IMG/VR virus record: IMGVR_UViG_3300037455_000467
Coordinates: 16,425 to 80,424 of that record
Direction: 5' to 3' (one strand)
Source: a virus
Lineage: Duplodnaviria; Caudoviricetes
DNA length: 64,000 nt
Part shown: piece by piece, positions 13,160 to 64,000 of the stretch
Layout of the letters: each line of letters begins with the position of its first letter
Position numbering within the stretch: position 1 is the first letter of the stretch
Translations under genes and position numbers: made by a program
The notes under the pieces: model-generated
Seen by the model: only the letters and a program-made list of their open reading frames with translations
The model's database searches: none
What the model was told of the DNA's origin: nothing

Positions 13160-13173
13160 TATAGTAATGGTAA

Positions 13174-14889: not shown

Positions 14890-14917
14890 CCTATATAAGT
14901 ACTGGTAAATTGTGCGA
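14890..14917 (-). promoter_or_regulatory. repeated promoter-like motif TCGCA-N14-TWWWAT-AG (copy 1 of 7)
   Basis: TCGCA caatttaccagtac TTATAT AGG upstream of ORF 14672..14860. Confidence 0.6.
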
Positions 14918-18663: not shown

Positions 18664-18691
18664 TCTATTATACAAGTGGGAATTTTTGCGA
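18664..18691 (-). promoter_or_regulatory. TCGCA-N14-TWWWAT-AG motif copy 3
   Basis: TCGCA aaaattcccacttg TATAAT AGA. Confidence 0.65.
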
Positions 18692-18702
18692 AAAAATATA
18701 AA

Positions 18703-18730
18703 TCCCCGGAAATTCAACGATCTCCGGGGA
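18703..18730 (-). terminator. GC-rich hairpin ending the HHG-leader operon
   Basis: TCCCCGGA/TCCGGGGA 8-bp stem followed by TTTATATTTTTT. Confidence 0.65.
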
Positions 18731-18740
18731 AATATAAATA

Positions 18741-19637
18741 CTATGAAGCGGCCTGTAAATATCTAATAGATTGTCTATTCTTACTATTTGTACTAGATTT
18801 ACGATTAGTAGAAGATTTTGGAGTTGATGTAGTCTTACGCTGAGTAGTTGCTGAGGTATTAGATTTCTTAGTTGTAGTTGAAGAATTTTGTTTAGGTTGT
18901 TCATCAGTATTAAATTGTTCATAAACAGCTTGAGCAGCTTTACGAGCCTCACGTGCTTTACGTACTTCATTCATAGTCTCTACAGTACGTCCACCATTAC
19001 GCTCTTCTTCTGCCATCTTCTTTTTAAGGTCATCGATACGTTTCTTAGCAGCATCAAGATCTTGCTTAGCTACGTCACGTGCTTTAGTTTTTCCATACTT
19101 ATTAATAAGATTATCATAAACTTTCTTACCAGTAGACTCGTAATGTTGTTTAGATTTTACAGAACCAGCATCAGCTGCTTGTTTAGCTTGACGTTGTCTT
19201 TGATATTGTTCTTCGCGCTGCCTATCGCCACGAGATTCATATTCTTGTTTTGCTTTACTTCCAGCATCAGTTTCTCTTTTAAAATTATTAGCATAGTCTT
19301 TAACACGATCTTTATATTCTTTAGCAGACTCTGCTTGTTTCTTCCATGAATCAACATAGCTATCCATCATTTTATTTTGAGCATATAAAGCTGCTCCGCC
19401 TAAAGCTACACTTCCTGCTACTAATCCAGCAGTTTTAAGAGCTGCTTTTTGTGACTTAGTAAGACCTCTACGCTTCTTACTAGTCTGTCGATCATGGACT
19501 TTACCTTTAGCAGTTCGAGTACCATCAGGATTCTGATATCTACGAACTCCCCATTTCATACCTTTTATGCCGTGATGAGAAATATAATCTACATCAAGTT
19601 GATCAACAAATGTTGGAGTATAATACACTACATACAC
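18741..19637 (-). CDS. HHG-leader protein 1 (TM helix, charged coiled coil, S/T/K tail)
   Basis: YISHHGIKGMKWGVRRYQNPDG; AGLVAGSVALGGAALYA. Confidence 0.8.
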   Translation of the reverse strand: MYVVYYTPTFVDQLDVDYISHHGIKGMKWGVRRYQNPDGTRTAKGKVHDRQTSKKRRGLTKSQKAALKTAGLVAGSVALGGAALYAQNKMMDSYVDSWKKQAESAKEYKDRVKDYANNFKRETDAGSKAKQEYESRGDRQREEQYQRQRQAKQAADAGSVKSKQHYESTGKKVYDNLINKYGKTKARDVAKQDLDAAKKRIDDLKKKMAEEERNGGRTVETMNEVRKAREARKAAQAVYEQFNTDEQPKQNSSTTTKKSNTSATTQRKTTSTPKSSTNRKSSTNSKNRQSIRYLQAAS

Positions 19638-19640
19638 CTC

Positions 19641-20126
19641 CTAAATATCAATAGTTCCAAGAGATTCTTTACTATAGGCTTTACGACCACCAGCCCATAC
19701 GCCATTCTTAACTTTATTCATATTATAGTCAGGCGATGCTAATGCTGAATATACTCCAAGTTCTCCACGCTTAGCTACAAATCTAACTACTCGTCCAGAT
19801 GGTGCTGGAATATCCTCAACTCGTTCATTCATTAGTCGAGCCATCTCACGATTATATTGATTGATAGCATTTTTGCTCATGAGTCCACGACTAGTATAAT
19901 ATCCACCTTGACGCTGAAGTTGTTTATCATACTGCTTCATGTCTTTAGCAACAAGTTTTTCAGTTTTCTTTTGAATCTTATTAGCATTTCTTTTTGCCCA
20001 TTTAGCATCTTGCTTTTGCAAATGCTTAACACCAGCAGGAGTTAAAGATCCGTCTTCATTTTGATATCGTCTAACGCCCCACCGTTGTCCTTTAATTCCG
20101 TGATGCATTAAATATAAGTCATTCAT
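19641..20126 (-). CDS. HHG-leader protein 2
   Basis: YLMHHGIKGQRWGVRRYQNEDGSLT. Confidence 0.8.
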   Translation of the reverse strand: MNDLYLMHHGIKGQRWGVRRYQNEDGSLTPAGVKHLQKQDAKWAKRNANKIQKKTEKLVAKDMKQYDKQLQRQGGYYTSRGLMSKNAINQYNREMARLMNERVEDIPAPSGRVVRFVAKRGELGVYSALASPDYNMNKVKNGVWAGGRKAYSKESLGTIDI

Positions 20127-20128
20127 AG

Positions 20129-21026
20129 CTATAGCATACCAACCATTCTTCTTCCAGCAGTATATGCTTTACTTTTATATACTTCACCCATAGTAGTACG
20201 ATATGATCCTTCAGATATAATAGAATCCATATTAAATACTATAACAGGACTTTGCGCTTGAACTGAATTATATAATGCATCATTCGTGTCTAATACCGCA
20301 TCGTATCCATTTTTTTTTTAATTCATTAAAAAACTTAGCTCTTTGCGTAGCAACATCTTTTGCATATTTTTTATTACCTCCAGCATCAGATGGAATGGCA
20401 TGATTAAATATTGGATAAATATCATTTAAATCTTTATCTGTCGGAATATAATTTGGATCTTTTAAACGATCCATTGCTGCTCTTCCACGAGCATATCCTG
20501 GACTAATTTTATGAACGCCATCTTCAAAACGAGCTCTAAGCCTATTTTCATCAGTTACAAAATTATAAAAGTCTCTATCATTTTCATATAATTTTCTAAA
20601 AGCTTTTGCTCCACTATCTTCTGATGCAACTTTAATTTCTTTATTCGCTTTATTTTGAATAGAATATTTATAAAAATTACCAGTTCCTATATTATTTCCA
20701 TTATCATCATAAATTGGCATAGGTGCTGGTTTATCAAAAAATTCTTTGTAATGATCAATATCTGCTTTTGTATGCGATGCAAAAAACATGTCAGTATTTG
20801 ATGTACGATTTTTATCATAAGATAATGTTTTAAAAACAGTACCTTCTTGTAATACATTATCATAATGTTTTTTATTATATCTACTATATTTTTTCTTGCG
20901 TTCTGCTTTTATAGCTTTTTGTTCTGTTTTACTATATGATCCACCTTTTAATGGATATGGTGGTCCATTACGTGTCCCCCATTTTTGACCAAGAATTCCA
21001 TGATGCATTAAATATAAGTCATTCAT
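20129..21026 (-). pseudogene. HHG-leader protein 3, frameshifted at an A10 tract (possible ART-like cargo)
   Basis: YLMHHGILGQKWGTRNGPPYPL; removing one A at 20310-20319 gives ...ELKKNGYDAVLDTND...VGML ending at TAG 20129, 2 nt before next ATG. Confidence 0.7.
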
Positions 21027-21030
21027 ACAC

Positions 21031-21435
21031 TCACCTATTTTCTTCAATGCCATAAACATTATTAATAGGATCGTATGTTAAATGTTTATCTTTTAAATTC
21101 ATTTTAGACATTAATTTTTTAACACGTTCAATATCTTTTTGATTTGTTTTAGCCCACTTTATAGCAGCATCTTCTGTTTGTTTCATTTGTTTTTTCATGT
21201 ATGATTTTTTATATAATTGTGGATATCGTTTAGCTTGAGCTTCCATTCTACCACGAGCAGATGCATTATCTAGCATTTGTGCATTAGAATACGCTTCTCG
21301 TCTAGCAGCTTTATTAAGTTTTTTTAAATATCTTTTTTCACCAGCAGGAGTAAGAGTCCCATCATAGTTTTCATAGCGACGTACACCCCAATGCATGCCT
21401 TTAATCCCATGATGCATTAAATATAAATCATTCAT
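21031..21435 (-). CDS. HHG-leader protein 4
   Basis: YLMHHGIKGMHWGVRRYENYDGTLT. Confidence 0.8.
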   Translation of the reverse strand: MNDLYLMHHGIKGMHWGVRRYENYDGTLTPAGEKRYLKKLNKAARREAYSNAQMLDNASARGRMEAQAKRYPQLYKKSYMKKQMKQTEDAAIKWAKTNQKDIERVKKLMSKMNLKDKHLTYDPINNVYGIEENR

Positions 21436-21462
21436 TGCACCTCAATTCAAACTTCGAAAAAA

Positions 21463-21489
21463 CATAGAGCTAGTAAATTTAGCTCTATG
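21463..21489 (-). terminator. intrinsic terminator
   Basis: CATAGAGCTA/TAGCTCTATG 10-bp stem then TTTTTT. Confidence 0.75.
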
Positions 21490-21498
21490 CTATAGGAT

Positions 21499-21816
21499 TT
21501 AATCCAACTTAATGTATGGATACTCACGAGTTATAAAATCTTTAACAATGACTCGCAGGCAGTCACAATCAGTTTTATCCTCAAGAATTTGATCTAAATC
21601 TTTCTTAAGAAACAGCTTTTTAGTTTCAAGCTCCATTATTTTATTCCGTCGACAAGTGATCTCATCTTTAATATCACTAATTTGCTGATCGTAATTATCA
21701 ATCATAGCTTGAACTTCATCGGCTTTCTTTGAATAATAGTCAAATTCCTTACTGAATTCACCATAATATTCAACTGCAACATCACGTGTTGATTTTACTC
21801 CACTCATAAATATCAC
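21499..21816 (-). CDS. small coiled-coil protein in its own promoter-terminator cassette
   Basis: GGAGGTG SD; heptads. Confidence 0.65.
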   Translation of the reverse strand: MIFMSGVKSTRDVAVEYYGEFSKEFDYYSKKADEVQAMIDNYDQQISDIKDEITCRRNKIMELETKKLFLKKDLDQILEDKTDCDCLRVIVKDFITREYPYIKLD

Positions 21817-21837
21817 CTCCTTTTAACGGATGTCAAT

Positions 21838-21865
21838 CCTATAAAAGAGGCAGTATTTATTGCGA
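21838..21865 (-). promoter_or_regulatory. TCGCA-N14-TWWWAT-AG motif copy 4
   Basis: TCGCA ataaatactgcctc TTTTAT AGG. Confidence 0.6.
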
Positions 21866-21875
21866 AAAATATCAA

Positions 21876-22034
21876 CTATTTAGTTTTATCTTGAAGATCA
21901 GAAAGCTTATGGAACAGCATTTTTCTTTTGAATACTAAATCACAAATTGCCTTGTCGAGATTCGAAATATCTTCTTTAACGTTTCGAATCTCATCAAATA
22001 TAATAGATTTGTCATCAGACTCATTATAAGCCAT
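21876..22034 (-). CDS. 52-aa coiled-coil protein (not in ORF track)
   Basis: AGGAG SD; MAYNESDDKSIIFDEIRNVKEDISNLDK...DKTK. Confidence 0.6.
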   Translation of the reverse strand: MAYNESDDKSIIFDEIRNVKEDISNLDKAICDLVFKRKMLFHKLSDLQDKTK

Positions 22035-22114
22035 GATTACCACTGCTCCTTAAAATTGTAAAAAGAAAGTAATGGTAATTTCTACCACAACTCTCTTTTT
22101 TGGTTAAATCATTG

Positions 22115-22327
22115 TTACATCCATAACGGATATCTCATAATTATATTGTATTCTTCTCTAGAAAGCAAGCTCAATAGATAAGATGCTTGCTTATCATTGA
22201 TCACACTCCAACATCCCATAAAATATCCTTCGCTGTAAGTCTTTGCAGCTTTGATATCAATTTTGTTGTTGAATGATCGCCAATTAGCAATCATTCTTTG
22301 AACTGCTTTCTTTTCTCTTCTTTTCAT
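22115..22327 (-). CDS. hypothetical protein
   Basis: GGAGG SD; follows promoter motif. Confidence 0.6.
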   Translation of the reverse strand: MKRREKKAVQRMIANWRSFNNKIDIKAAKTYSEGYFMGCWSVINDKQASYLLSLLSREEYNIIMRYPLWM

Positions 22328-22366
22328 ACTTCCTCCTAAATATCCGTGAGATCCACATTGATCTCT

Positions 22367-22393
22367 CCTATAAAGAGGTAGTATTTATTGCGA
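22367..22393 (-). promoter_or_regulatory. TCGCA motif copy 5 (1 nt shorter)
   Basis: TCGCA ataaatactacctc TTTAT AGG; spacer near-identical to copy 4. Confidence 0.6.
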
Positions 22394-22399
22394 AAAATA

Positions 22400-22672
22400 T
22401 CACACAACATTTCTAGAAACAATTTTCCAATCAAGATAACGATAACAATTATCGTATACTTCTTTATAACAAATAGACACTTGCATTTCATCTGGATTTA
22501 TTATTACATCTCTAATATGCATTAGGCCTTTATTATGTATGTAAAAAAAGCCATCTAAATCTTTTTCTATATGAAGCCAAGCATCTTCTATTTTAAAATA
22601 TAAATTGGGATAACAAACTGAATCCATGTCAAATCTTAATACAGATCGTTTTTTAATTTCGAAAACTCTCAT
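22400..22672 (-). CDS. hypothetical protein, tandem paralog of 22678..22950
   Basis: shared LYFKIEDAW and IINP..MQV.I.YKE. Confidence 0.65.
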   Translation of the reverse strand: MRVFEIKKRSVLRFDMDSVCYPNLYFKIEDAWLHIEKDLDGFFYIHNKGLMHIRDVIINPDEMQVSICYKEVYDNCYRYLDWKIVSRNVV

Positions 22673-22677
22673 AACTA

Positions 22678-22950
22678 TTATCTAACCTCTCTATGAATAA
22701 TATCAAAACAGGTATATTGATAATAATCATAATAAGTTTCTTTATATATAATACATACTTGCATTTTAGTTGGATTAATTATAATATTATGAATATGAAT
22801 GGCGCCCATATCATGACTTCGAAATTCCATCTCTAAATGCTTACCAATTTCAGTCCAAGCATCTTCTATTTTAAAATATAAATACAAATCACGGTCACTA
22901 ACCTCGTATGATTGCATTACTTTACGTCTCTTAATTTCCCAAACATCCAT
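22678..22950 (-). CDS. hypothetical protein, tandem paralog of 22400..22672
   Basis: shared LYFKIEDAW; 29-bp identical DNA. Confidence 0.65.
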   Translation of the reverse strand: MDVWEIKRRKVMQSYEVSDRDLYLYFKIEDAWTEIGKHLEMEFRSHDMGAIHIHNIIINPTKMQVCIIYKETYYDYYQYTCFDIIHREVR

Positions 22951-22979
22951 GATTTCTCCAGAATTATTTAATCATAATT

Positions 22980-23543
22980 TTATTGATTCTTTCTAGAATA
23001 TCCATATACCGACCATTCATCATTGCTTTTATCAGCTTCATATTCAAAACCAACTTTTTCAGCAATATGAGTAGAGCCAGTATTCTCTTTATAAGCTCCC
23101 CAGCCAAGATAAGTAGCACCATATTTGTCTGCATTTTTATCAAACCAGTTGACGCCTTGCTGAGCTAATTTTAATGCTCGTCCCTGACCTCTATAATTAG
23201 GATCAGTACCGACAGCTACAGTTAAATGACCTTCACGAGTTGTTGTCATAATATCAAGAAAAGCTACTGGAATATCACCATCTTTTTCTAAAAATCGTTT
23301 AACAACATACTCGCCTTCTTGAAGTGTTAAGAATTCGTTAGATCCTTCATCATCACCAAGAAGATATTTATCTTTTTTGGACATAGAATTATAGATACGA
23401 TCTACATCATTTTTAGTCTTAGCAGCACGCTGCATTCGTCTATGATAAATACCTTCTTCAGTCAAAGATCCATCAGCATTCTGATAACGTCTAACACCCC
23501 ATTTCATGCCTTTTACGCCATGATGAGCTAAATATATATTCAT
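22980..23543 (-). CDS. HHG-leader protein 5 with GNAT acetyltransferase domain
   Basis: YLAHHGVKGMKWGVRRYQN; VAVGTDPNYRGQGRA (motif A) and ENTGSTHIAEKVGF (motif B). Confidence 0.8.
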   Translation of the reverse strand: MNIYLAHHGVKGMKWGVRRYQNADGSLTEEGIYHRRMQRAAKTKNDVDRIYNSMSKKDKYLLGDDEGSNEFLTLQEGEYVVKRFLEKDGDIPVAFLDIMTTTREGHLTVAVGTDPNYRGQGRALKLAQQGVNWFDKNADKYGATYLGWGAYKENTGSTHIAEKVGFEYEADKSNDEWSVYGYSRKNQ

Positions 23544-23571
23544 GAGTAAAAGTCCTTACTAAAAATATAAA

Positions 23572-23599
23572 GCTAGCCGTAAATTTCTTCACAGCTAGC
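23572..23599 (-). terminator. intrinsic terminator
   Basis: GCTAGCTGT/ACGGCTAGC stem then TTTATATTTTT. Confidence 0.7.
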
Positions 23600-23615
23600 C
23601 TTATAGAAACTAACT

Positions 23616-23912
23616 TTAATCCTCTTGAGAGAATTTTTCTTTATACTTCATTACAGCAGTTCGCTCCATGAACATCTTAGCACCTTCATGGGTGAGCCTA
23701 TCTATTTCAGATTTAACGACACAACGATCTCTTTTTAAAGTATCAAGCTCGTTCTCTAAGGTCTCAATAGCATCCTCAAGCTGATCGAACTTAATTTTGA
23801 GTTCGTGTTTCTCATCATCTTTAGCATTGACTCGTTCATGAATATCATCTAAGATCTCTTCACAAAGTCCAACTATGTGATAATTTATACTCATAACTAA
23901 CCTCCTCTCCAC
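23616..23912 (-). CDS. small coiled-coil protein in promoter-terminator cassette
   Basis: GGAGG SD before internal ATG; heptads. Confidence 0.6.
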   Translation of the reverse strand: MERRLVMSINYHIVGLCEEILDDIHERVNAKDDEKHELKIKFDQLEDAIETLENELDTLKRDRCVVKSEIDRLTHEGAKMFMERTAVMKYKEKFSQED

Positions 23913-23931
23913 AATAGTCTTTCTGTCAGTT

Positions 23932-23959
23932 CCTATTATAGAAGAAGTTAGTTTTGCGA
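23932..23959 (-). promoter_or_regulatory. TCGCA-N14-TWWWAT-AG motif copy 6
   Basis: TCGCA aaactaacttcttc TATAAT AGG. Confidence 0.65.
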
Positions 23960-23969
23960 GAAAAAAGAA

Positions 23970-23999
23970 AAGGTGGTTAATGATTCAACTAACCACCTT
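23970..23999 (-). terminator. intrinsic terminator
   Basis: AAGGTGGTTA/TAACCACCTT 10-bp stem then TTCTTTTTT. Confidence 0.75.
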
Positions 24000-24017
24000 A
24001 AATCTTAGAATATAATT

Positions 24018-24497
24018 TTAGATTGACGGTCGAACCAACTGGCTCATTCCATTAACAAGTCTTTGAGGAACTGTACTATTCCTTTCAAGACCAATCCAGA
24101 AAGCTAGAATAATACCATATGTTACAATGCCACCCATTTTTAACATGGTTTGCGAATATCCATCTTGTCTCTTGTTTTGCGCTTCTATTATCTGAAGCTT
24201 TATTTTGTCTTTTTCAGAACTTCCTTTCTCAAGGGAATTCAGAATATCACTTAAAACTTTCAGATTATTTGCTGCCATTTGATACTCAGGTGTATCAGCA
24301 TGCAATGTTGACATTGTACTGATGGCATTAACCATCTCTTCCTTTATTAGTTCTTTGATTTTTTCATAATCTAATTCACTCTCATCTTCGTTAATAGATA
24401 CAGCAACTTTGGTTACCGATCCATTATTGTATCCCAAAAGATTTAATAATGTTGGTGAATTTACCATACCTTTTCCTTTCGTCCTAGGAAGAATCAT
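24018..24497 (-). CDS. membrane-anchored hypothetical phage protein
   Basis: coiled coil then IVTYGIILAFWIGL TM. Confidence 0.6.
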   Translation of the reverse strand: MILPRTKGKGMVNSPTLLNLLGYNNGSVTKVAVSINEDESELDYEKIKELIKEEMVNAISTMSTLHADTPEYQMAANNLKVLSDILNSLEKGSSEKDKIKLQIIEAQNKRQDGYSQTMLKMGGIVTYGIILAFWIGLERNSTVPQRLVNGMSQLVRPSI

Positions 24498-24514
24498 TCT
24501 CTTCGATTCTTCTC

Positions 24515-24542
24515 TCCTTTATAGAAAAAGTATTTTTTGCGG
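24515..24542 (-). promoter_or_regulatory. motif copy 7 (CCGCA variant)
   Basis: CCGCA aaaaatactttttc TATAAA GGA. Confidence 0.5.
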
Positions 24543-24548
24543 AACTTA

Positions 24549-25478
24549 TTATAACAAATTATTATACTTCTGATCATTACCAGTTGTACGTAATCTCTCC
24601 CAATCAGGCTCTCCATACTTTTCAACATATGACTTGTAACCAACAAAGTCCTTACCATACCGTCTTAAATTACTTTCAAGAACAGCCTTGGTAGCTTTAT
24701 CATAAGTCTTTTGGAATTCTGAAGCACGCTTCTTTTCGCGTTCAACTTCAGCCGCTCTACGCTTATTCTCTGCAGCAGCTTCTTTACGAGCCTTATTACG
24801 CTTCATGCCCCAATAATCAGCTTGCTCTCGTGCTGAATCTCTGTTTCGATTAATATCACGTGCACTAAATGTTGTGTCTTTATTTACAACCTTAGCTTCT
24901 GGACCATTATATCGTCCTTCGCGCATATTATTAACGAATTCTTTACGAGCATCTGAATCTCGAACTGATTTCATAGCATCAGATATCTTAGTTTTTGTTG
25001 CTGCTTTCTGCTGATTCTTAGCAGTCTTCATATTGTTATAATTAGCTCGTGTAAATTGATCTGCTATAGCTTCTCGTTCTTTATCAGTATAACTATAGAA
25101 ACCAGGATTTTCTTTAATTGCTTCATTTGCATACTTCTTAGCAAGATTATACTGGTGAGTATCGCTTACTTTATTAGCGGCCATATTAGCAATATAAGCA
25201 GTAGCAAGAACCCCACCAGCAATTGCAGCACCTTTAGCAATTTTCTTATAAGTCTCTTTAGCTTCATCTGATGTCAACTTTTCTTTAAGAGCATCTCGCT
25301 TTTCTTGTTTAGCAGCTTTACGATCTTGACGATTCTGCCAATATTTAGCATAGCGTTTCTTACCAGCATCTGTGAGTTTTCCTGCAGCAGTTTCATATCT
25401 ACGGACACCCCACTTCATGCCTTTTACGCCATGATGAGCTAAATATAAATCATCAGTATAACTTGGTAAATACTCCAA
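24549..25478 (-). CDS. HHG-leader protein 6 (TM helix, Ala/Lys-rich coiled coil)
   Basis: YLAHHGVKGMKWGVRRYE; GAAIAGGVLATAYIA. Confidence 0.8.
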   Translation of the reverse strand: MEYLPSYTDDLYLAHHGVKGMKWGVRRYETAAGKLTDAGKKRYAKYWQNRQDRKAAKQEKRDALKEKLTSDEAKETYKKIAKGAAIAGGVLATAYIANMAANKVSDTHQYNLAKKYANEAIKENPGFYSYTDKEREAIADQFTRANYNNMKTAKNQQKAATKTKISDAMKSVRDSDARKEFVNNMREGRYNGPEAKVVNKDTTFSARDINRNRDSAREQADYWGMKRNKARKEAAAENKRRAAEVEREKKRASEFQKTYDKATKAVLESNLRRYGKDFVGYKSYVEKYGEPDWERLRTTGNDQKYNNLL

Positions 25479-25493
25479 AATATAAACACCTCC

Positions 25494-26567
25494 TTATCTA
25501 TTAATTCCGAATTGATTCAACAAGTTATTAGTTGCTTCTATTGTTGATTGATTAAGATTACCAATCATCTCAGAAATATCACCGGATTTAACAGATTTAG
25601 CAGCATTGTAAACTGTTTTAGCATCTTGAATAGTCTTTGGAGCATTCTTTATTTTAGATACTGTAGTCTTAGCTTTTTCAAATTGCTCAGCAGTATCATC
25701 AGTATTACGTTCTCTAGTTCTACGTTGTTCATACCGAGCTTGTTCTTTTGCTTTTTTAGAAGCTTCGTTCTTTTCTTTAACAACTGTAGCAATACTTTTT
25801 GCGGCATTACCAGCAGTATTCTTAACGGTGTTGACAGCTTTTTTAGCATTATCGCTATTTAAATACTTGCTAGTGCCGTCTTTAATCGTAGAAATTTGCT
25901 GTGCAAAAATATCACTAGCAGCTTGTTGCTTAGTAGCTGCTGCTCTAGCTTTAGAAGCCTTAGCATTAGCTTCTTTAATAGCATCAGAAGCTCGATGAGA
26001 TGCGGGTTCGACATTCTTTGTTGACTTCTTAGCAATATCAGCAACTTTACTATTCTTAAGCTTACTAGTAGCTGCCTCAATAAGTTGTTTATCCTTACCA
26101 GTTTTGTGAAGAGCATAAGCAGTTCCACCAACTAAAGCAGCTCCTGCAGCAGCTTTAAGTCCCTTTGAAACAATTCCAGATTTAGGAGATCTATTTGAAG
26201 CAACTGCTTTCATGTATTTATTGTGCTTAGCTTTTCTACGAGCACTATTAGCTAAAGATGCTCCAGCACTAGCAGCTGTAGCTCCTGCAACATATGGAGT
26301 AGCTTTATATAAATATGGATTCTTTCTAACAGCAAGTGTAGCAGCTGTTCCAACTACACCTTTAACAGCTGCTTTCTTTAAAGACTTGGATGACTTTTTA
26401 TCATACTTGCTAGCTAGTTTAGCATACTTCTTTCTACCAGCAGGAGTAAGAGTCCCATCATAGTTTTCATAGCGACGTACACCCCATCGCATACCTTTGA
26501 TACCGTGATGAGCTAAATATAAATCATCTACGTATGAAGATGAGTACTCCACATTTAGTACCTCCAA
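25494..26567 (-). CDS. HHG-leader protein 7 (several Gly/Ala TM-like helices, Lys/Ala-rich)
   Basis: YLAHHGIKGMRWGVRRYENYDGTLT; AAAGAALVGGTAYAL. Confidence 0.8.
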   Translation of the reverse strand: MEVLNVEYSSSYVDDLYLAHHGIKGMRWGVRRYENYDGTLTPAGRKKYAKLASKYDKKSSKSLKKAAVKGVVGTAATLAVRKNPYLYKATPYVAGATAASAGASLANSARRKAKHNKYMKAVASNRSPKSGIVSKGLKAAAGAALVGGTAYALHKTGKDKQLIEAATSKLKNSKVADIAKKSTKNVEPASHRASDAIKEANAKASKARAAATKQQAASDIFAQQISTIKDGTSKYLNSDNAKKAVNTVKNTAGNAAKSIATVVKEKNEASKKAKEQARYEQRRTRERNTDDTAEQFEKAKTTVSKIKNAPKTIQDAKTVYNAAKSVKSGDISEMIGNLNQSTIEATNNLLNQFGINR

Positions 26568-26572
26568 ACTTC

Positions 26573-26773
26573 TTACTTATTATTGTAAGCTTTAGTACTA
26601 ATCCCAAGCAATGCACCCATAAAAGTGTCGATTGCAGTAATAGTACCAACAACTTCATTACTATTAGGAAGTCCCCAAATAGCTGCCAAAGTGAAATATA
26701 AAGTTCCTAATGCAGGGAGAACAATCATAGCTATAAATTTTAAAATATCATACGTTTTATTGTCCATTAGCAT
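26573..26773 (-). CDS. holin (Dp-1-type)
   Basis: NKTYDILKFIAMIVLPALGTLY...GTITAIDTFMGALLGIS. Confidence 0.85.
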   Translation of the reverse strand: MLMDNKTYDILKFIAMIVLPALGTLYFTLAAIWGLPNSNEVVGTITAIDTFMGALLGISTKAYNNK

Positions 26774-27020: not shown

Positions 27021-27165
27021 CTATATACATAGTGCCTAATGCTATAAGCACTAAGGTTCCAAAAAATAATACAATATCATACTCTCTAAATCTAGCAACA
27101 AGACATAATACTAATGCTATTGCTAAAAATATAAGCAATAGAAACCAAAATTTTAGAAGTATCAT
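27001..27165 (-). CDS. 54-aa two-TM protein (not in ORF track)
   Basis: MILLKFWFLLLIFLAIALVLCLV...IVGFVFL; ATGA overlap with lysin stop. Confidence 0.55.
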   Translation of the reverse strand: MILLKFWFLLLIFLAIALVLCLVARFREYDIVLFFGTLVLIALGTMYIVGFVFL

Positions 27166-28808
27166 GCAGGTTGAACACCAGCTCCGGCATCAAGAACTAG
27201 ACCAGATTTAATGCTAGCAATCCTAATATTACCATCAGAAGACTCAATGAGTGCCCAGCGCTGAGCATCAGTACTATTGCTCGGATGAATCCAAATACCA
27301 GTCTTATTCTCAGTGCCGCCATTAATAACGTCAAGTCTCATGCCAGGTGCGCATTTAGGCTCAAGCTCGCAGTACGTACCGAAAGCTTTAGGAACCCAAA
27401 TAAGTTTCCAAAGCTGTCCGTCAGAGTTGAGTTTCTTCCATACTCGAACTGGCGTATGATCATCAGATAAAGCATCTCGAACATCAAGATACATGTCTCG
27501 ACCAATATTACGAATTCTGAAATATCCATCATTATTGTTGATGAATTCGAAGTGTTGCATCGGAGTATTATTAGTCTGATAGATCTTAGTAGAATATCCA
27601 TCCGGAATTACTGGAGTAGGTTCTGGCGTTGGCTCAGGTTCAGGAGTAGGATCTGGTTTTGGAGCAGGCTTAGTACCATACTTAGGACGAATAACATATC
27701 GAATAGTACTCAATGCACGAGTTTTATTTTGAACCGAGTTAGAGACATTACCTTCAATTGTCTCGACATATCCGCCAACAAGTGAACCCTTAGCAAAGCC
27801 AATATGATCAGTTGTGGCAGTACCCCAGTTCCAGTCAAATATCAGAATGTCACCACGTTTAATACTAGTACGCTCAACAAGAAGCTTATTAGCGCCTCCA
27901 TTAAGAGCAAGGTCAGTATTCTGAGACGGGAATCCTGCAACTTCAACACCAGCCTTATTCAAGACCCAACTGACAAACATGCAGCACCACCAAATCTCAA
28001 CTGATGGTCCTGCCATCCAATCTTCACCAGTTATTTGAGCCATCCAACGACCATACTTAGATCCGCGCTCAGGATCATTAGGAGCATAATATCCAAGCTC
28101 GCCTTCAGCAATGCTAATAACATCATCAGCTGTTCCACCAGAGCTAGGCACAGTCTCATCCTCCTCATATGATGTATCGCCATTGTTAATACGACTTGGA
28201 TAGTCAACAACACACCAGTCAACATCATGGAAACCAGAAACATCATCATATACGATCATACCATCAGAGTAGCGCATACCACCCTGCTGCCACATACCAA
28301 TATCGCCAGCTTCATAAGGCCACTTGGCACGCCACCAAGCAATCCAGTTAGCATACTTATCGAGTTCGTTTCGATACATGTTATTAAGCCACGCTGAGCC
28401 ACCCGTGTATAGACCGGCATAATATCCAAGCTGAATCAACTTATCGCAGAAAGCTTTAATAACATCTGTAAGATTACGAGCAGGAAGAGCAAACTGACGA
28501 TTGTCCTCTACATCCATGTAACACGGGAGATCGTATTTACGACCCTTGAGAATATTGGCAAAGTGCTCAGCATCTTTTATAGCATCAGTAGTATTAGTAG
28601 AGACAGTATAATAATAAAAGCCGATATGAAGGCCCGCAGCCTTAGCGTTTGCATAATGACGCTCAAACCATGAGTCTGTGTATCGATTAAGACCAGTTTC
28701 ATGTCCACCAGCTTTAATTATAACTCCCCATAAATTATGCTTCTGCTTCCATGCAGCAAGGTCAATATCAGAATCGTATTTGGAAATATCAAGTACTAAT
28801 TCGTTCAT
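27162..28808 (-). CDS. endolysin: GH25 muramidase, CHAP/NlpC-type domain, ricin-B lectin repeats
   Basis: LDISKYD...YMDVED (GH25); WCCMFVSW...TDHIG...TIEGN (CHAP); QHF/QLW/QRW repeats; PEP-rich linker. Confidence 0.9.
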   Translation of the reverse strand: MNELVLDISKYDSDIDLAAWKQKHNLWGVIIKAGGHETGLNRYTDSWFERHYANAKAAGLHIGFYYYTVSTNTTDAIKDAEHFANILKGRKYDLPCYMDVEDNRQFALPARNLTDVIKAFCDKLIQLGYYAGLYTGGSAWLNNMYRNELDKYANWIAWWRAKWPYEAGDIGMWQQGGMRYSDGMIVYDDVSGFHDVDWCVVDYPSRINNGDTSYEEDETVPSSGGTADDVISIAEGELGYYAPNDPERGSKYGRWMAQITGEDWMAGPSVEIWWCCMFVSWVLNKAGVEVAGFPSQNTDLALNGGANKLLVERTSIKRGDILIFDWNWGTATTDHIGFAKGSLVGGYVETIEGNVSNSVQNKTRALSTIRYVIRPKYGTKPAPKPDPTPEPEPTPEPTPVIPDGYSTKIYQTNNTPMQHFEFINNNDGYFRIRNIGRDMYLDVRDALSDDHTPVRVWKKLNSDGQLWKLIWVPKAFGTYCELEPKCAPGMRLDVINGGTENKTGIWIHPSNSTDAQRWALIESSDGNIRIASIKSGLVLDAGAGVQPA

Positions 28809-54832: not shown

Positions 54833-55227
54833 TTACTCAGTCTCTAACGTAAGACCAGAGAGATCGTACTTGTAAGTGGACGAGACCGTACCATCACTGA
54901 TGACAACAACGAACTTCTGGTTATCCTTATCAGTAACCTTCCATGCGCCATTCTTATCAGGATCGTCAATAATCTCGACTAAGCCGCCACCATGACTGGG
55001 TTCCATACCACACTTAACACTCGTGAAGTCAGTGAAGTCATTATCAGACCAGTCAAGGCACAGGAAGTTACCAGCACCCCAACGATCAGGCAATGCGCCC
55101 TCATCAACATACTTCAGAGTACCGGTAATGAGCCCATCCTCAATTTCGACATCTTCCTGAAGATCAGAAACAGTATGTCCAAAGATAACAGAGCTTGAAC
55201 TTATGGGCTTAACGTCAAGCTCGTCTA
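54833..55227 (-). CDS. putative -1 frameshift C-terminal extension of the major capsid protein
   Basis: open -1 frame across TCT TTT TAG; no SD/start after the capsid stop; capsid-like codon use. Confidence 0.65.
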
Positions 55228-57231
55228 AAAAGACTCGACCTCGAGAGCAATCGCGCTGTACGGATGAGTAAGAGCACCAGAGCAACGGGTCTCGATCAAA
55301 TACTTCATCTGGTTGTAATCGATGTCAAAGTCATCAAAGAGCGACACTGCGCCACCCTTATCAGCACCAACAGTGTAATCAACCGGATTGAAGATCAGAG
55401 CCTTAAGAGACATCTGCTTAGAAGTAGTGGTCTCAACACCGTTATTAGTAGTAGTGATAGAAGCAGTACGAGTAATGCCCTCCATCACAGGAACCTCAAC
55501 GATCTCAGAAACACGCAGAGCAGCCTGAAGCTCATTCATGTCCTTGTAGAGACGACGACCAATACCATCCTTAGCAAGAAGCATATCAGCAATCACATCA
55601 TTAGTAGCGAACATCTTGGGATTGCCGGTGCCACGATACTCCTTACGAGCACGGACAGCAGCGTCAACCATCTTGCTAGCCTTAACGCTATCAGTGTCAC
55701 CATCCTCGTAAGTAACCTCATAGTAAATAGTGTAAACATCATCATCGCCATAAATCGGGCGGATGCGATCAGTCTTAATCTTGTCAGGAGCATTAACGCC
55801 ACGACCGTCACCAACAAGAATAGCACGACAAAGCTCCTCATTAAGCATAACACGAAGCTCCTGCTTAAGCCATGCAATGACATCAAGATCAGTAATATCA
55901 ATCACGTCATCACGATCAAGAGTCTGCTTCTTGTAAATGGTCTGAGGAGTGGTCTCACGGGAAAGCAGAGTGATAACCTGATCAGCCTTCTTATTACCCT
56001 TGACATAACCCTTCGCCCTTGCCTGATCGGCAGTGAGATTAGCAGCAATAGACTTAATACGCGCAAACGGAGTACGCTTAACAGCATTCCAAAGAATATC
56101 AACCCAGCCCATATTACGAGTAATCATATCAGGAGTAGGCTGAACCATACGAGCCTCAGGGAAGAGAATATCAATATCCTCAATGCCATGAGCAAGGAAC
56201 GTATCCTTTAGAGAATTAGAATTATAGGCATCCTCCATGATAGCGGTGAACTCGTCATGGGTCAGGACGTCGGACTCATCATAGCCGTCAGTGTACTCAT
56301 CATCGAAAACATTGTGCTTCATATCATTACCTCCATAATTAAACTCGGAATGCTCTGCCTCATTCTCATCGATTGCTTGACCAATCAAGAAGTATACAAT
56401 ATCTTTCTGCTTATCAGTAAGAGAATTAAATACATCCTCTACTGTCTCATCATCGTCTGCATGCTGCATGTCCTCATCGGACTCGTCATCTTCATAATAC
56501 TCATTCTCATCGTCATCGGCATGCTCAAGAGCATCCTGTATGGCAATTTCAATGAGCTTACCAACGGCCTCAATCTGATCATCAGTAAGGTCGTCAAGAA
56601 CAGGATCATCATCCAAATCATCTACAGCATCATCAAGTGCTGCATCAATGATCCTATCAATTGCATTAATCTGTTCATCGGTGAGCTCATCGAGAACATT
56701 ACCGTTGTTAGCCACAGAATCCTCCTCATCATCGTTATCGTCTGCGTGACTAAAATACTCAACAGAGTTAATGCCAGTAAATATAACTGCTTCATCATCA
56801 ACATCTGTGTAAGTACCATCTGCATGTGCAAAGCTAACGTTTTCGATGTATGCTCCAGGATTCGCTCCAGCTAAAACAAGGCTAACTTCACGAATAACGC
56901 CGTGAATAACGTCGCTGCCCTGCTGCTTAAGACGGTTAGCATAAATAGACATTGAAACAATATCACCATTACGAACCATCTCTTTGGCGTGTTGTCCTGC
57001 AGGAGTCTTATTAAACACTCCATAAGCATACACTCCGTCATCACGATTCTCAAGAAGAGCATGACCTAACACATTTGTGGGATCAGTATGTACATGCTGC
57101 CACACAAGTGGGACTTGCTTACCATCATTACCCTTGAAAGCATCGTGACGGATTACGCGACCATCTGCACAACGAAGATCATTTCTTGTGGCATACCCAC
57201 AAAAATCGTAATCCATAATAGTACCTTTCAT
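55225..57231 (-). CDS. fused prohead protease and HK97-fold major capsid protein
   Basis: VPLVWQH...VLGH, SIYAN, EVSLVLAGANPGA (protease); acidic linker; DFDIDYNQMKYLIETRCSGAL (capsid). Confidence 0.92.
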   Translation of the reverse strand: MKGTIMDYDFCGYATRNDLRCADGRVIRHDAFKGNDGKQVPLVWQHVHTDPTNVLGHALLENRDDGVYAYGVFNKTPAGQHAKEMVRNGDIVSMSIYANRLKQQGSDVIHGVIREVSLVLAGANPGAYIENVSFAHADGTYTDVDDEAVIFTGINSVEYFSHADDNDDEEDSVANNGNVLDELTDEQINAIDRIIDAALDDAVDDLDDDPVLDDLTDDQIEAVGKLIEIAIQDALEHADDDENEYYEDDESDEDMQHADDDETVEDVFNSLTDKQKDIVYFLIGQAIDENEAEHSEFNYGGNDMKHNVFDDEYTDGYDESDVLTHDEFTAIMEDAYNSNSLKDTFLAHGIEDIDILFPEARMVQPTPDMITRNMGWVDILWNAVKRTPFARIKSIAANLTADQARAKGYVKGNKKADQVITLLSRETTPQTIYKKQTLDRDDVIDITDLDVIAWLKQELRVMLNEELCRAILVGDGRGVNAPDKIKTDRIRPIYGDDDVYTIYYEVTYEDGDTDSVKASKMVDAAVRARKEYRGTGNPKMFATNDVIADMLLAKDGIGRRLYKDMNELQAALRVSEIVEVPVMEGITRTASITTTNNGVETTTSKQMSLKALIFNPVDYTVGADKGGAVSLFDDFDIDYNQMKYLIETRCSGALTHPYSAIALEVESF

Positions 57232-61154: not shown

Positions 61155-62540
61155 TTAGCCTAGTTGTGATTCCAATTCATCGAGCAATCGCTCAGTTTCA
61201 TCGAAATCTCCATTATCATTAGCTTCGTTAAGCAAATCTTCTAATCCGTCTAAGTCACTTCCACCAAGTTGATCAGCTAATGAACCTGAATTACTTCCAT
61301 TTTGATTTCCACTACTAGTTCCTGGAGCAATCTTATCAATTGGCATGTTCTTATTAATAAGCTCATCCGACCTAGGATTATCGCTAGCCTTATAGCCAAG
61401 AATAGCACGAACTTCATTAGCTGAAAGAATCTCATTACGACTAAATGCATTAGCCATGTTAGCAACTTCATCTGGAGTTACAAGATCAAATGCATCAATG
61501 TAATAAGCAATCTTCTGACCTTGAGTTCTAGCAGTAGGAGTAAGAAACTTTCTAGTAAATTCAAGCTCAATTGTATCAAGAATTGGTTTTAATACTTTCT
61601 TGTTATATACAAGCATCTGTTCTTGATTGGCAGTTCCACGGAATACATCGCCGCTTATACCAATCTGATTGTATAATTGCTCAGTAAGAGTTGTAATTTG
61701 ATTTGGAAGATCATTCTCAATTGATCGGTTAAGTTGTGTAACATGCTCTGTAGAATCGATGTATCCAACACCATACTTAGATCCAACTAGTTGATCTTCA
61801 AGCATCTTTCTACGCTCTTCCGCTTGTGCTTGTCTACTAGGAGACTTTAATGAGTATGGAAGTTGCACAAGAAGATTAAGTTTGGAAGATGCTTTTTGAC
61901 CATCAATCTGATCAAGAAGATTCATCTTATAAACTAGACGCTTAAGTGTTGAATTTGGCTCATTCATTACTGAATAAAATGGATTCTCAAGTATTGCTAC
62001 TTTATCCTTTGGTAATGTAATATCTTCTCTTTGACCATTTCGATCATTATATACATTAACTCGAACATATGATGGCATCCAGTCAACTATCTTACCAGTT
62101 CGCAATGACAAAATATCAAATGAATTATTTCGATCAAGATTAACATTTGTATCAACTGGAACTACAGCAATAACACCTTCGTCCAGCATGGATAAGGTTA
62201 CATCAACCCAAAAATCTCTAGCAGTTTGATCAATATTAGCCGATAATGTTATACAATCATTCAAGCTACTTTTAATATGGTCAACAAATCTGTCGTTAGA
62301 ATCGACCCTAACATGCTGAATCTGAATGGAGGCAACATCGTTTGCTATTCTATTAAATATAGAATTAAGAATAGATCGCTCACTACTATAACGCATTCGA
62401 TGACGATCTTGTCTAAAATAACTAGTTGATCCAATCTGACTCATCAAGGAGCGACCAGCTTCATCAGTAGTCTCAGATCGACGCTTTTCTTCAGATTGAA
62501 AAGCATTCCATGCACTAGCAAATCGATCTTTTAATGACAT
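61155..62540 (-). CDS. portal protein
   Basis: NRIANDVA, SANIDQT, RTGKIVDW, IENPFYSVMNEPNSTL, E.LS.NEVR..LG. Confidence 0.9.
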   Translation of the reverse strand: MSLKDRFASAWNAFQSEEKRRSETTDEAGRSLMSQIGSTSYFRQDRHRMRYSSERSILNSIFNRIANDVASIQIQHVRVDSNDRFVDHIKSSLNDCITLSANIDQTARDFWVDVTLSMLDEGVIAVVPVDTNVNLDRNNSFDILSLRTGKIVDWMPSYVRVNVYNDRNGQREDITLPKDKVAILENPFYSVMNEPNSTLKRLVYKMNLLDQIDGQKASSKLNLLVQLPYSLKSPSRQAQAEERRKMLEDQLVGSKYGVGYIDSTEHVTQLNRSIENDLPNQITTLTEQLYNQIGISGDVFRGTANQEQMLVYNKKVLKPILDTIELEFTRKFLTPTARTQGQKIAYYIDAFDLVTPDEVANMANAFSRNEILSANEVRAILGYKASDNPRSDELINKNMPIDKIAPGTSSGNQNGSNSGSLADQLGGSDLDGLEDLLNEANDNGDFDETERLLDELESQLG

Positions 62541-62590: not shown

Positions 62591-63115
62591 TTAAATTCCA
62601 ACCCAGCTATATGGATTTGTATAAGCTCTAACATATGATTTTGCAGCAGCTTTTGCTTTAGAATCTCCTTGATTACGATATCTATTATATGATCCACGAA
62701 CAGAGCCTTTAACAAGTGCTGATTTAGCCATCTCAGTACGATGCGCTTTTTTAGCACTCTTTATTTTAGCAGCATCTCCACTAGCTTTAGCAGTATAAGT
62801 ATTGGCATAAATTCTATCTCGATTGGCTGCAACACTATATGCATCAGAAAGCCCTCTTGTACCAAATTTATCATATTTTTTAGCTTTTGCTTCTGATTCA
62901 TCAGCACGCTTATTTATTTTAGCAGCTTTTGCTTCATACTTAGCCTTACGTTTCTTACCTTTATCAGTAAGAGTACCATCAGAATTCTGATAGCGACGAA
63001 CTCCCCACTTCATACCTTTAATACCATGATGGTAAAGCGAATCAGTCCAGGAAGGTTCTACATGATATAGATAGCTCATAGCTACCTCCTTTAAAATATC
63101 ACTCAAATGCTTCAC
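62591..63115 (-). CDS. HHG-leader protein 8, between terminase and portal
   Basis: SLYHHGIKGMKWGVRRYQNSDGTLT; likely start at MSYLY (GGAGG upstream). Confidence 0.8.
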   Translation of the reverse strand: MKHLSDILKEVAMSYLYHVEPSWTDSLYHHGIKGMKWGVRRYQNSDGTLTDKGKKRKAKYEAKAAKINKRADESEAKAKKYDKFGTRGLSDAYSVAANRDRIYANTYTAKASGDAAKIKSAKKAHRTEMAKSALVKGSVRGSYNRYRNQGDSKAKAAAKSYVRAYTNPYSWVGI

Positions 63116-64000
63116 GATTTAGCTTATAAGATACATAAGCATCCATCATTGCAGCTACACTATCAATCTTTTTATCATTACGTTTCTTTAATAATTTACG
63201 ATTACCATTAGTATCTTCAAGAGTAATACAATTTCCCATACAGAATGACATAAGCTCTTCATCAAACAGCAATAACCGCTCTTCAGCAAGCTTCTTCAAT
63301 TCACCGAGAGGAACAGATTCTGTCTTAGCTCCCTGTATTACTTTTTCAACACCATACGGTCCATTCTCAGTACACCATCTAGCAACAAAATCTTTAGCAT
63401 TATATGGATCATACCCAAAACTAGCAACTTCATAGCCTACTTGTAAAATATATGCATCTAAATCATTATAGACTTCCATCATATCAAGTACTGCACCATC
63501 TAGTACAATGAGACTACCTTCATTAATAAAATCATCATACTTTTGACGCATAGCAAGTGGAAGTTTCTTAACAGTTAACTCAGATACATAACATCTAGTC
63601 TTAATTCCAAATGCTCCATCTCGCAATGGAAACATGAAAGTAAACGCACAGAAGTCATCACCTTGTGAAAGGTCGGCACCCATTGCACATCTCATTCCCC
63701 AGAAACTATGAGGACGATGTACTTTAGTTTCTTCATAAGTAAAGAAATATGTATAACCTTCCATAGGAATTCCAAAACGTTTTGCTAAAATATCATTGCG
63801 TGAAGCTGGATTCTTTTCAGCTCTCTCAACATCAAGCTGATAAGTTTCATAACTAACTGTCTTACCAATATTTGGCTGTGCTTTTATCCACATAGCCGGA
63901 TCGGCAACTTCTTTAACATCATCTAATTTATAATACCAAATCGAAACATGCGGGTTTACATACTCACCTTTAAGTATCGACATTAATTCCATTTTGATTG
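63099..64000 (-). CDS. terL: terminase large subunit, C-terminal nuclease part (truncated by window edge)
   Basis: W.KA.PNIG, GADLSQGDDF, FGYDPYNA, KIDSVAAMMDA. Confidence 0.9.
   Translation of the reverse strand, partial: IKMELMSILKGEYVNPHVSIWYYKLDDVKEVADPAMWIKAQPNIGKTVSYETYQLDVERAEKNPASRNDILAKRFGIPMEGYTYFFTYEETKVHRPHSFWGMRCAMGADLSQGDDFCAFTFMFPLRDGAFGIKTRCYVSELTVKKLPLAMRQKYDDFINEGSLIVLDGAVLDMMEVYNDLDAYILQVGYEVASFGYDPYNAKDFVARWCTENGPYGVEKVIQGAKTESVPLGELKKLAEERLLLFDEELMSFCMGNCITLEDTNGNRKLLKKRNDKKIDSVAAMMDAYVSYKLNREAFE

Follow-up and report, generated by a model that had tools for sequence, protein, structure and literature searches.

The 64,000-nucleotide stretch analysed here (the window) forms the final 64 kb of the IMG/VR virus record IMGVR_UViG_3300037455_000467, which is 80.4 kb long. 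The window has a G+C content of about 33% and encodes eight proteins, H1 to H8, that share a short peptide motif at their start, the DUF7211 tag. Every gene of the window lies on the minus strand. In the direction of transcription, the nuclease half of the large terminase (TerL) is followed by H8, the portal gene, the gene for a 1262-amino-acid (aa) coiled-coil protein, a fusion of an S78 protease with the capsid protein, the tail genes (with a reverse transcriptase and a 2502-aa fibre gene), an endolysin and a Dp-1-type holin. The holin is in turn followed by an array of seven tagged genes, H7, H6, H5, H4, H3, H2 and H1, which runs from 26567 down to 18741 (Table 1), and numerous small genes and two tRNAs lie beyond H1, downstream. 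A first-pass annotation of this DNA had described eight proteins with a common HHG...WGVRR leader on unrelated sequences and had proposed that the leader is a modular tag loading diverse effectors into the phage head. Indeed, when the window is translated in six frames, the expression HHG[IV].G..WG[VT]R matches exactly eight times, each time near the N-terminus of a minus-strand open reading frame (ORF), and a scan of the whole record found the same eight copies and no further canonical one. The positions given for these genes mark the stop (low-coordinate) ends of the ORFs, but the leaders lie at their high-coordinate ends.

The consensus common to the window proteins is LYLxHHGIKGMKWGVRRYQNxDG(S/T)LT, and the Pfam family DUF7211 (PF23847) matches all eight. 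Seven of them score above the 27-bit gathering cut-off (30.5 to 44.6 bits, E 2.4e-7 to 9.4e-12). H3 stays below it, with 17.9 bits (20.8 in the genome scan), because the second half of its motif reads RNGPPYPL instead of RRYQNxDGSLT. The Pfam model has 25 residues and no recorded function, whereas the conserved unit in our analysis covers about 33 to 40 residues; two tag variants extend beyond the model, namely xRNGPPYPL and a polymerase form, HYGxxRRSGRYPWGSG. A search of the literature returned no paper that mentions DUF7211 or the motif strings, no PDB chain matched the tag profile even at E 10, and tblastn with H1 or H8 recovered only the motif, in 8 records. Past about 40 residues, the eight proteins cannot be aligned, and the best tail-to-tail blastp match (E 0.12) leaves no significant pairwise similarity, in agreement with the notion of unrelated sequences behind a common leader. 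At the DNA level, the leaders are 60-87% identical to one another and differ at synonymous positions throughout, indicating that the motif is kept by selection at the protein level and not by recent duplication. The 87% identity of the H4 and H7 leaders extends over 104 nucleotides (nt) and may mark a conversion tract.

Seven of the eight proteins have an isoelectric point (pI) of 9.5 to 10.1, the exception being H5 with its GNAT tail. The tail of H1 is rich in Ser, Thr and Lys, and this protein weakly matches phrog_35934, annotated as "virion structural protein"; an atlas search with the H2 cargo returned no function. H8 probably starts at ATG 63079 (162 aa), as in a 100%-identical database copy of that length. 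Scans of the eight proteins against NCBIfam and PADLOC gave nothing meaningful, and a Phage_Mu_F (SPP1 gp7-like) domain was not matched in any of them using Pfam or PHROG. The Gly/Ala-rich transmembrane helices called in the first-pass annotation were not upheld, since these stretches are weakly hydrophobic: no 19-residue stretch in the window proteins reaches a mean Kyte-Doolittle value of 1.6, and H1 alone, with its one Gly/Ala segment, reaches 1.44, on a crude scale whose result is compatible with weakly hydrophobic segments of the signal-anchor-release type. Two other candidate readings of the motif were set aside. A Tat or Sec signal was discarded on inspection, as the RR pair is not followed by a hydrophobic stretch. 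YQNxDGxLT resembles choline-binding, cell-wall or YD-repeat hairpins, but the single copy per module and the modelled disorder of the tag argue against a repeat fold.

We then considered the cargos of H5 and H3. The call of a GNAT domain in H5 was confirmed by profile and by predicted structure: the cargo matches PF00583 with 26.6 bits (cut-off 20.7) and PF13302 with 26.0 bits (cut-off 25.4), and Foldseek searches with the AlphaFold2 model (mean predicted local distance difference test score, pLDDT, of 90.2) gave 423 PDB matches at E ≤ 1e-3, the best at E 1.5e-7, with only GNATs among the matches listed. H5 is thus predicted to carry a GNAT acetyltransferase of generic fold. Its H3 counterpart is interrupted. 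Frame 0 of the H3 gene stops at 20280, the +1 frame runs on to 20132, and the C-terminal block KKGYNALLDxND..PxIVFD, conserved in intact homologues, aligns to the +1 frame behind a run of ten A (20310-20319), indicating that H3 is frameshifted in this assembly. The end of H3 at 20129 given earlier therefore holds only when the frameshift is read through. The A10 run could be an assembly error, a site of transcriptional slippage or the mark of a real pseudogene.

An AlphaFold2 model of an intact H3 homologue from another locus (L005, 56% identical) has a cargo, residues 65-295, with pLDDT values of 85 to 95. This cargo resembles ADP-ribosyltransferase (ART) superfamily folds, the closest being MbcT (Z 7.2) and catalytic domains of the diphtheria toxin type (Z 5.7-6.5), followed by ParT, Tne2, Tse6, ExoA and PARP domains at Z 3.8-5.2; these hits agree with one another, and all lie below Z 8. 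Foldseek returned nothing at E ≤ 1e-3 for this cargo. Its best match there is chain 9k3a_B of the cyanophage A4 pre-ejectosome (E 7.8e-3, probability 0.96, VIA Z 6.4), a domain of a capsid-internal ejection protein (PMC12002296). The near-invariant residues of H3-type cargos are D99, Y103, S145, G240, A243, D246, D249, P260 and V263, and a search of the alignment for the ART catalytic signatures R-S-E, H-Y-E and R-E-S found no invariant Arg, His or Glu. The models therefore support the designation "ART-like", with modest scores, at the level of the fold only. In both models, the tag is invariant in alignments and nevertheless has pLDDT values below 50-60 (below 50 in the H3 homologue; 50-60 for the first 20 tag residues of H5) beside a cargo at 85-98. 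Such an invariant but disordered segment next to a folded cargo is as expected for a docking peptide that has no stable fold of its own and would bind a partner in trans.

A profile built from the eight leaders was searched against 1.84 billion representative proteins. It matched 35,186 cluster representatives at E ≤ 1e-3, 20,562 at E ≤ 1e-10 and 213 at E ≤ 1e-30, a score that requires at least two motifs. Longer relatives carry 2 to 7 motifs per chain, with a median spacing of 224 residues between successive ones. Among 373 relatives fetched, the motif opens every chain (HHG at residue 6-35, 5th to 95th percentile), and internal copies are conserved like the terminal ones, with H, G and W invariant and a unit that reaches from L at -4 to Y at +26. 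Two examples are P0121 (1745 aa, seven motifs) and P0177 (650 aa, three motifs), whose frames are open under table 11 on their own contigs; stop-codon read-through as the origin of such long multi-tag proteins was thereby rejected. Since the internal copies start modules and are equally conserved, the motif is an element that opens modules and not a leader in the strict, N-terminal sense. In relatives, the array of seven genes seen in the window has fused equivalents.

Of the cargos of 803 modules, 73% are basic (pI > 9; 89% when only single-motif proteins are counted) and 11% are acidic; a hydrophobic segment is present in 16-26% of cargos. To follow the tails in their genomic context, we used 87 loci, comprising 79 from IMG/VR, six from other assemblies, the cultured Faecalibacterium phage FP_oengus and the window. 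Clustering of the 260 tails from these loci gave 100 groups, of which 68 contain a single tail. Recurrent tails are of the H3 type (24 loci), of the H2 type (14 loci), and GNAT and papain-like domains (Gln_amidase PF15644, Cys..His..Asp; at least 16). Tag and cargo are thus modular without being freely shuffled, as several pairs, the H3-like one among them, are old and stable families: 38 of 42 homologues of the H5-type GNAT carry the tag, down to 54% identity. In six loci (L024, L046, L062, L074, L034 and L070), tagged proteins have a Gly/Ala hydrophobic segment and then a papain-like domain with the signature NCxxC..YELRRRGYDV..GxHS..D and conserved Cys..His..Asp, long relatives of which match PF15644. 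Such a cargo might act as an effector, by deamidase or peptidase activity, or as an enzyme active on the cell wall.

One further tail, which we call the core family (phrog_32444), has one copy per genome in 68 loci, in most cases immediately upstream of TerL. In its members, the tag and a basic linker are followed by a conserved helix (MSDxELRxxxNRLQLExQY) and, at the C-terminus, by a hydrophobic segment rich in Gly and Ala. A comparison of the core profile with the PDB gave only insignificant coiled-coil matches, the best being the 80alpha scaffold protein at E 0.19. No core member was found in the window, most likely because the record ends within TerL and the region in which the core gene usually lies is lost.

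These cargo classes bear on whether the tag has a common function at all. The eight proteins could instead form an expanded paralogous family whose N-terminus is kept for folding or expression while the tails diverged beyond recognition; the tails are mostly of low complexity and basic, so that homology could hide there. Distinct folds stand behind the same tag, however (GNAT, ART fold, papain-like and the two-barrel RNA polymerase described below), the tag is disordered and so provides no folding core, and tags remain conserved within fused chains. We regard this as the least probable explanation, by our estimate very improbable. The fused chains raise a more serious alternative, namely that the tag is chiefly a processing signal at the unit boundaries of polyproteins, cut by the S78 or another protease and left as a remnant or propeptide in stand-alone genes. 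The tag does open every module in chains of 2 to 7 modules, stand-alone genes begin 5 to 9 residues before HHG, and these phages encode a capsid-fused protease. On the other hand, there is no conserved cleavage-type pair outside the motif, only L at -4 and D or N at -6, which seem to be part of it; about 99% of the family scores as single-tag (213 of 35,186 reach E ≤ 1e-30), where a boundary signal would be superfluous; and an invariant motif of 33 residues far exceeds known prohead-protease sites. A processing role, which would be compatible with head loading, is in our view unlikely to be the chief one.

In the loci, a homologue of TerL lies within 10 kb of a tagged gene in 80 of 87 cases, portal in 77 and the protease-capsid fusion in 67. 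In some 90% of the loci, the tagged genes belong to the module for packaging and head formation. They form same-strand arrays of 1 to 8 genes per locus that flank TerL, upstream of portal and of the protease-capsid fusion; 54 tagged ORFs lie within 150 nt of TerL. Where both TerL and portal are present, at least one tagged gene lies between them in 56 of 74 loci, most of which also have 1 to 4 directly upstream of TerL. In relatives, the region upstream of TerL carries a connector gene and additional tagged genes, including the core gene. FP_oengus likewise has TerL, a tagged gene, portal and capsid in this order, and its tagged gene occupies the slot of H8. Among cellular genomes, the family was found in 3 of 201 sampled bacteria (one order), always clustered, and in 0 of 14 controls; this sporadic and clustered occurrence indicates that it travels with phages.

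A related order is found in Lactococcus phage 1706 (EU081845), which can be propagated on a laboratory strain and in which holin, ORF6, ORF7, TerL, portal and a capsid/protease fusion succeed each other. ORF7 (462 aa) has two matches to the tag profile, at residues 30-43 and 180-199 (full E 4.3e-11), and one to the profile of the core tail (residues 45-136; E 1.8e-7), which makes it a DUF7211 protein with two modules, the core module among them. GenBank labels ORF6, ORF7 and the far-end polymerase homologue ORF75 as "structural protein". The same label stands on ORFs away from the morphogenesis block of that record, in which sequence-based calls read "putative" or "unknown", and this pattern suggests an experimental basis for the labels. 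The authors of the 1706 study reportedly analysed purified virions by mass spectrometry. The reviews that mention this phage contain nothing on its virion proteins, and the "structural protein" label of the polymerase homologue gp106 of ReqiPoco6 is repeated by similarity.

The position of these genes also admits an intracellular role, in which the tagged proteins would stay unpackaged and the tag would attach them to a common hub, for example the motor of the terminase, phage DNA in replication or a protein of the host; they would then be DNA-packaging accessories, a substitute for the small terminase or host-takeover factors. This would fit the lack of a recognisable small terminase beside a core gene usually directly upstream of TerL, the very basic cargos, which are like DNA binders, and the position of H4 to H1 behind a promoter-like site that is common to non-structural genes. 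Up to eight or more distinct tagged proteins per genome are, however, ill-suited to a small terminase, and neither the eight window proteins nor 36 members of the core family match TerS, helix-turn-helix (HTH) or other DNA-binding families. Moreover, the structural label of the two-tag protein of phage 1706 would be unexpected for a small terminase, and enzymatic cargos (ART fold, GNAT, papain-like) are a better fit to effectors. We give this explanation little credence.

A role in the membrane or in lysis has to be weighed as well, because H7 starts 6 nt past the stop of the holin, and the order of holin and then tagged gene recurs in loci L005, L006, L033 and L080 and in phage 1706. The tag would then be a cytoplasmic handle and the Gly/Ala segments anchors, as in lysis regulators, enzymes of the signal-anchor-release type or superinfection exclusion factors. 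The hydrophobic segments in a minority of cargos, the papain-like domains behind such a segment and a weak match of H1 to a spanin PHROG point the same way. Most cargos have no hydrophobic segment, however, and those of the window stay below the hydrophobicity usual for transmembrane helices; multi-module chains would need a topology alternating through folded enzymes; and the arrays lie mostly around TerL with no holin detected nearby (a holin match in 7 of 87 loci). We consider this role distinctly improbable.

The tag has a sister on an RNA polymerase of the same phage. This 935-aa protein (L087:555-3362, minus strand, outside the window) has the two-barrel RNA polymerase loop GADFDGDT and HTH domains at both ends, and its N-terminus reads FLMHYGTPRHSGRYPWGSG, with the pattern LxHYGxxRHSGRYPWGSG. 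Homologues of this polymerase were found in the loci (n = 33), and the full-length ones begin with the sister motif; in the homologue of locus L006, a canonical DUF7211 (E 2.3e-19) takes its place. In 251 phage records, some of them from actinophages without DUF7211, the sister motif is present as a single copy per genome. The homologue of FP_oengus has been proposed as an RNA polymerase and as a signature of a supercluster that joins these phages with Lactococcus 1706-like phages and several actinophage clusters (bioRxiv 10.1101/842583).

Built on direct observations, namely the motif, its modularity, its modelled disorder, the gene neighbourhood and the cargo folds, the reading that we favour, with confidence somewhat above even, is that the DUF7211 tag docks its bearers onto the head-assembly machinery, so that they are enclosed in the procapsid and delivered with the DNA. 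It is indirectly supported by the location in the packaging and head module, the disordered tag, the enzyme cargos (ART fold, GNAT, papain-like), which are of kinds that other phages are known to inject, the sister tag on the polymerase and the labels in phage 1706, and none of the four rival explanations accounts for as much. The docking unit would comprise about 33 residues, (D/N)xLxHHGIKG(M/Q)KWGVRRYQNxDG(S/T)LTxAGxKRY, and would bind a head-assembly component conserved in a single large lineage of siphophages of Firmicutes (the Oengusvirus / Lactococcus 1706-like branch). This component would probably be either the portal or the scaffold-like inner portion of the protease-capsid fusion, a fusion that we infer to be a candidate receptor and/or processing enzyme for the tag. 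The tagged proteins would be built into the procapsid, stay beside the DNA in the virion and enter the host at infection. In this phage, the payload would consist of an ART-fold enzyme (H3), a GNAT (H5) and six basic proteins (H1, H2, H4, H6, H7 and H8), and probably also of the phage's own two-barrel RNA polymerase, by means of the sister motif. The Gly/Ala-rich segments of some basic proteins could enter the host membrane, and in fused chains either each module would dock separately or the capsid protease would cut at the tags. A more far-reaching version, in which one disordered peptide is a transplantable address for packaging and injection across a very large lineage of Firmicutes siphophages from gut and dairy sources and serves an RNA polymerase, a membrane-active core protein, interchangeable enzymes and DNA-coating basic proteins, with chains cut at the tags by the capsid-fused protease, is put forward as a tentative possibility that we ourselves rather doubt. 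If it held, injected effectors could be picked out by one general rule in uncultured phages, thousands of them, and foreign proteins could be loaded into these phages.

Several observations weigh against delivery from the head. Seven of the eight genes lie past the lysis cassette and outside the head module; H7 and H6 share a transcription unit with the holin, which ends at a strong terminator near 23970, and the promoter-like site ahead of H4 to H1, of the TCGCA type, also precedes small non-structural genes, so that H4 to H1 may belong to a temporal class different from that of the structural genes. On a simple scale, the hydrophobic stretches of H1, H6 and H7 do not reach the hydrophobicity of transmembrane segments. 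The match of H3 to the ART fold is modest, with canonical catalytic residues not conserved. Most cargos show no recognisable activity and, family-wide, are simply basic and 100-250 residues long. In working internally, the tag would be unlike known N-terminal capsid-targeting sequences; the core of the original proposal, a tag for head loading, remains the best reading, with the correction that the tag is not strictly N-terminal and recurs inside chains at module starts. Finally, the binding partner of the tag is one that we infer, the support drawn from the 1706 labels is GenBank annotation only, and the FP_oengus paper reports no virion proteomics (PMC5883640).

Other features of the window are collected in Table 1. 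The record is estimated to be "100% complete", yet it ends within TerL, and the ATPase half was looked for at the opposite end of the record and not found; the left end of the genome is therefore missing. No close DNA relative was found among annotated phages. Five exact matches to the sequence TCGCA-N14-TWWWAT occur in the window, where 0.9 would be expected; they are confined to the minus strand and to the interval from 13 to 24 kb, and weaker copies of this type lie near 22372-22402 and 24521-24551. The motif may define a class of promoters specific to the phage, which might serve its RNA polymerase or a host enzyme that the phage has modified. Within the array, two adjacent paralogous genes of 90 aa (22400-22672 and 22678-22950) share a 52-nt stretch at 83% identity. 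The 1262-aa protein in the interval between portal and capsid (57362-61150) is without a family match and has coiled-coil-type matches only; locus L006 has a 1554-aa protein immediately before its portal gene. The 1262-aa protein may be an internal head or ejection protein. The reverse transcriptase (RVT_1, E 4.5e-12; 42166-43365) lies directly upstream of the 2502-aa tail-fibre-like gene (34657-42165), and the pair looks like a putative diversity-generating retroelement. In the replication-side region of the same phage, there are two paralogous DUF6353 proteins (L087:12053-13000, E 1.8e-62; L087:14510-15424, E 9.5e-60).

Table 1. Tagged genes and other features of the 64-kb window, from its high-coordinate to its low-coordinate end
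Feature	Position	Strand	Description
Large terminase (TerL), nuclease half only	63099..63998	minus	PF20441 E 5.4e-37; gene truncated by record end
H8, DUF7211 protein	62591..63115	minus	174 aa from GTG 63115; tag 62930-63052; DUF7211 E 3.6e-11; between TerL and portal
Portal protein	61155..62540	minus	tblastn to annotated portals, about 49% identity; homologues in 77/87 loci
Prohead protease (S78) fused to major capsid protein	55225..57231	minus	phrog_3270 E 1.6e-208; PF05065, PF04586; homologues in 67/87 loci
GH25/CHAP/ricin-lectin endolysin	27162-28808	minus	
Dp-1-type holin	26573..26773	minus	PF16938 E 1.3e-28; directly upstream of H7
H7, DUF7211 protein	25494..26567	minus	357 aa, pI 10.1; tag 26409-26531; E 1.1e-10; Gly/Ala-rich weakly hydrophobic stretches
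H6, DUF7211 protein	24549..25478	minus	309 aa, pI 9.8; tag 25335-25457; E 9.4e-12
Terminator-like hairpin	23970..23999	minus	12-bp stem, then T run; closes lysis-H7-H6-orf159 transcription unit
H5, DUF7211 tag and GNAT acetyltransferase cargo	22980..23543	minus	187 aa; tag 23424-23543
Promoter-like site TCGCA-N14-TWWWAT (here TTTTAT)	21841..21865	minus	ahead of orf105-H4-H3-H2-H1 unit
H4, DUF7211 protein	21031..21435	minus	134 aa, pI 9.9; tag 21313-21435; E 7.3e-10
H3, variant tag and ART-fold cargo	20132..21026	minus	variant tag HHGILGQKWGTRNGPPYPL (20904-21026); frameshifted at A10 run 20310-20319
H2, DUF7211 protein	19641..20126	minus	161 aa, pI 10.1; tag 20004-20126; E 2.4e-7; cargo family in 14 loci
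H1, DUF7211 protein	18741..19637	minus	298 aa, pI 10.0; tag 19476-19598; E 2.9e-10
Terminator hairpin	18703-18730	minus	end of orf105-H4-H3-H2-H1 unit
TCGCA-N14-TWWWAT, exact copies	13158-13182, 14893-14917, 18667-18691, 21841-21865, 23935-23959	minus	

To our knowledge, proteins injected by phages, such as anti-restriction proteins, host-modifying enzymes and RNA polymerases, are known from a few model phages of Gram-negative hosts and are almost unrecognisable in metagenomic phages. If the reading of the tag as an address for the head is true, a motif of 33 residues would flag the injected payload across the 35,186 cluster representatives, mostly from gut phages of Firmicutes. It would also explain the arrays of small basic genes around the terminase, the unrecognised small terminase there and the delivery by a siphophage of its own RNA polymerase, and it would provide a simple tag for packaging foreign proteins. 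The gut phages concerned include a Faecalibacterium prausnitzii phage that has been reported in up to 40% of human samples (PMC5883640).

The closest parallels come from systems in which proteins are carried in the head. In phage T4, the signal is a short N-terminal leader that is removed by the prohead protease. The T4 internal proteins (IPI, IPII, IPIII and Alt, one of them an ADP-ribosyltransferase) are brought into the prohead by a short addressing sequence and are injected with the DNA (PMC3012670). Similarly to the tagged proteins, they are diverse and often basic, and the short addressing sequence is their only conserved part. In contrast, the DUF7211 unit has about 33 residues and also stands within chains, at up to 7 positions that are equally conserved, and it occurs in Firmicutes siphophages with a protease-capsid fusion. 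In phage P1, the N-terminal 30 residues of DarB suffice to send a reporter into the capsid (PMC9024508), and DarA and Hdf lie on the inner capsid surface and exit with the DNA (PMC12810830). That signal is known on a single P1 protein, and loading in P1 depends on dedicated adaptor proteins, whereas DUF7211 is found on many proteins and bears no sequence relation to it. Jamet et al. and Iyer et al. are said to have described, both in 2017, the MuF polymorphic toxins and the "polyvalent proteins" of phages. Genes of these kinds lie in the head module by the portal and encode interchangeable C-terminal enzymes (of ART, deamidase and acetyltransferase types) that are thought to be delivered with the DNA. 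Their very long multi-domain chains are like those found here, but the constant part of the DUF7211 proteins is a disordered peptide before every module and not a folded domain of about 100 residues or more, and the tagged genes lie upstream of the portal, whereas MuF genes follow it. No sequence relation of the tag to the T4 leader or to MuF was found. The DFDGD-loop polymerases of virions, such as gp66 of the crAss-like phage phi14:2 and the RNA polymerase of P23-45 that is fused to the tape measure protein, are packaged and injected for early transcription (bioRxiv 10.1101/2020.03.07.982082, 10.1101/2022.12.01.518664). These have no DUF7211-like N-terminus on record, whereas the polymerase here carries a tag or sister motif that is common to many small proteins. 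By analogy, the DUF7211 tag is thus probably comparable in role to the capsid-targeting signals of T4 and P1, to which it is unrelated in sequence.

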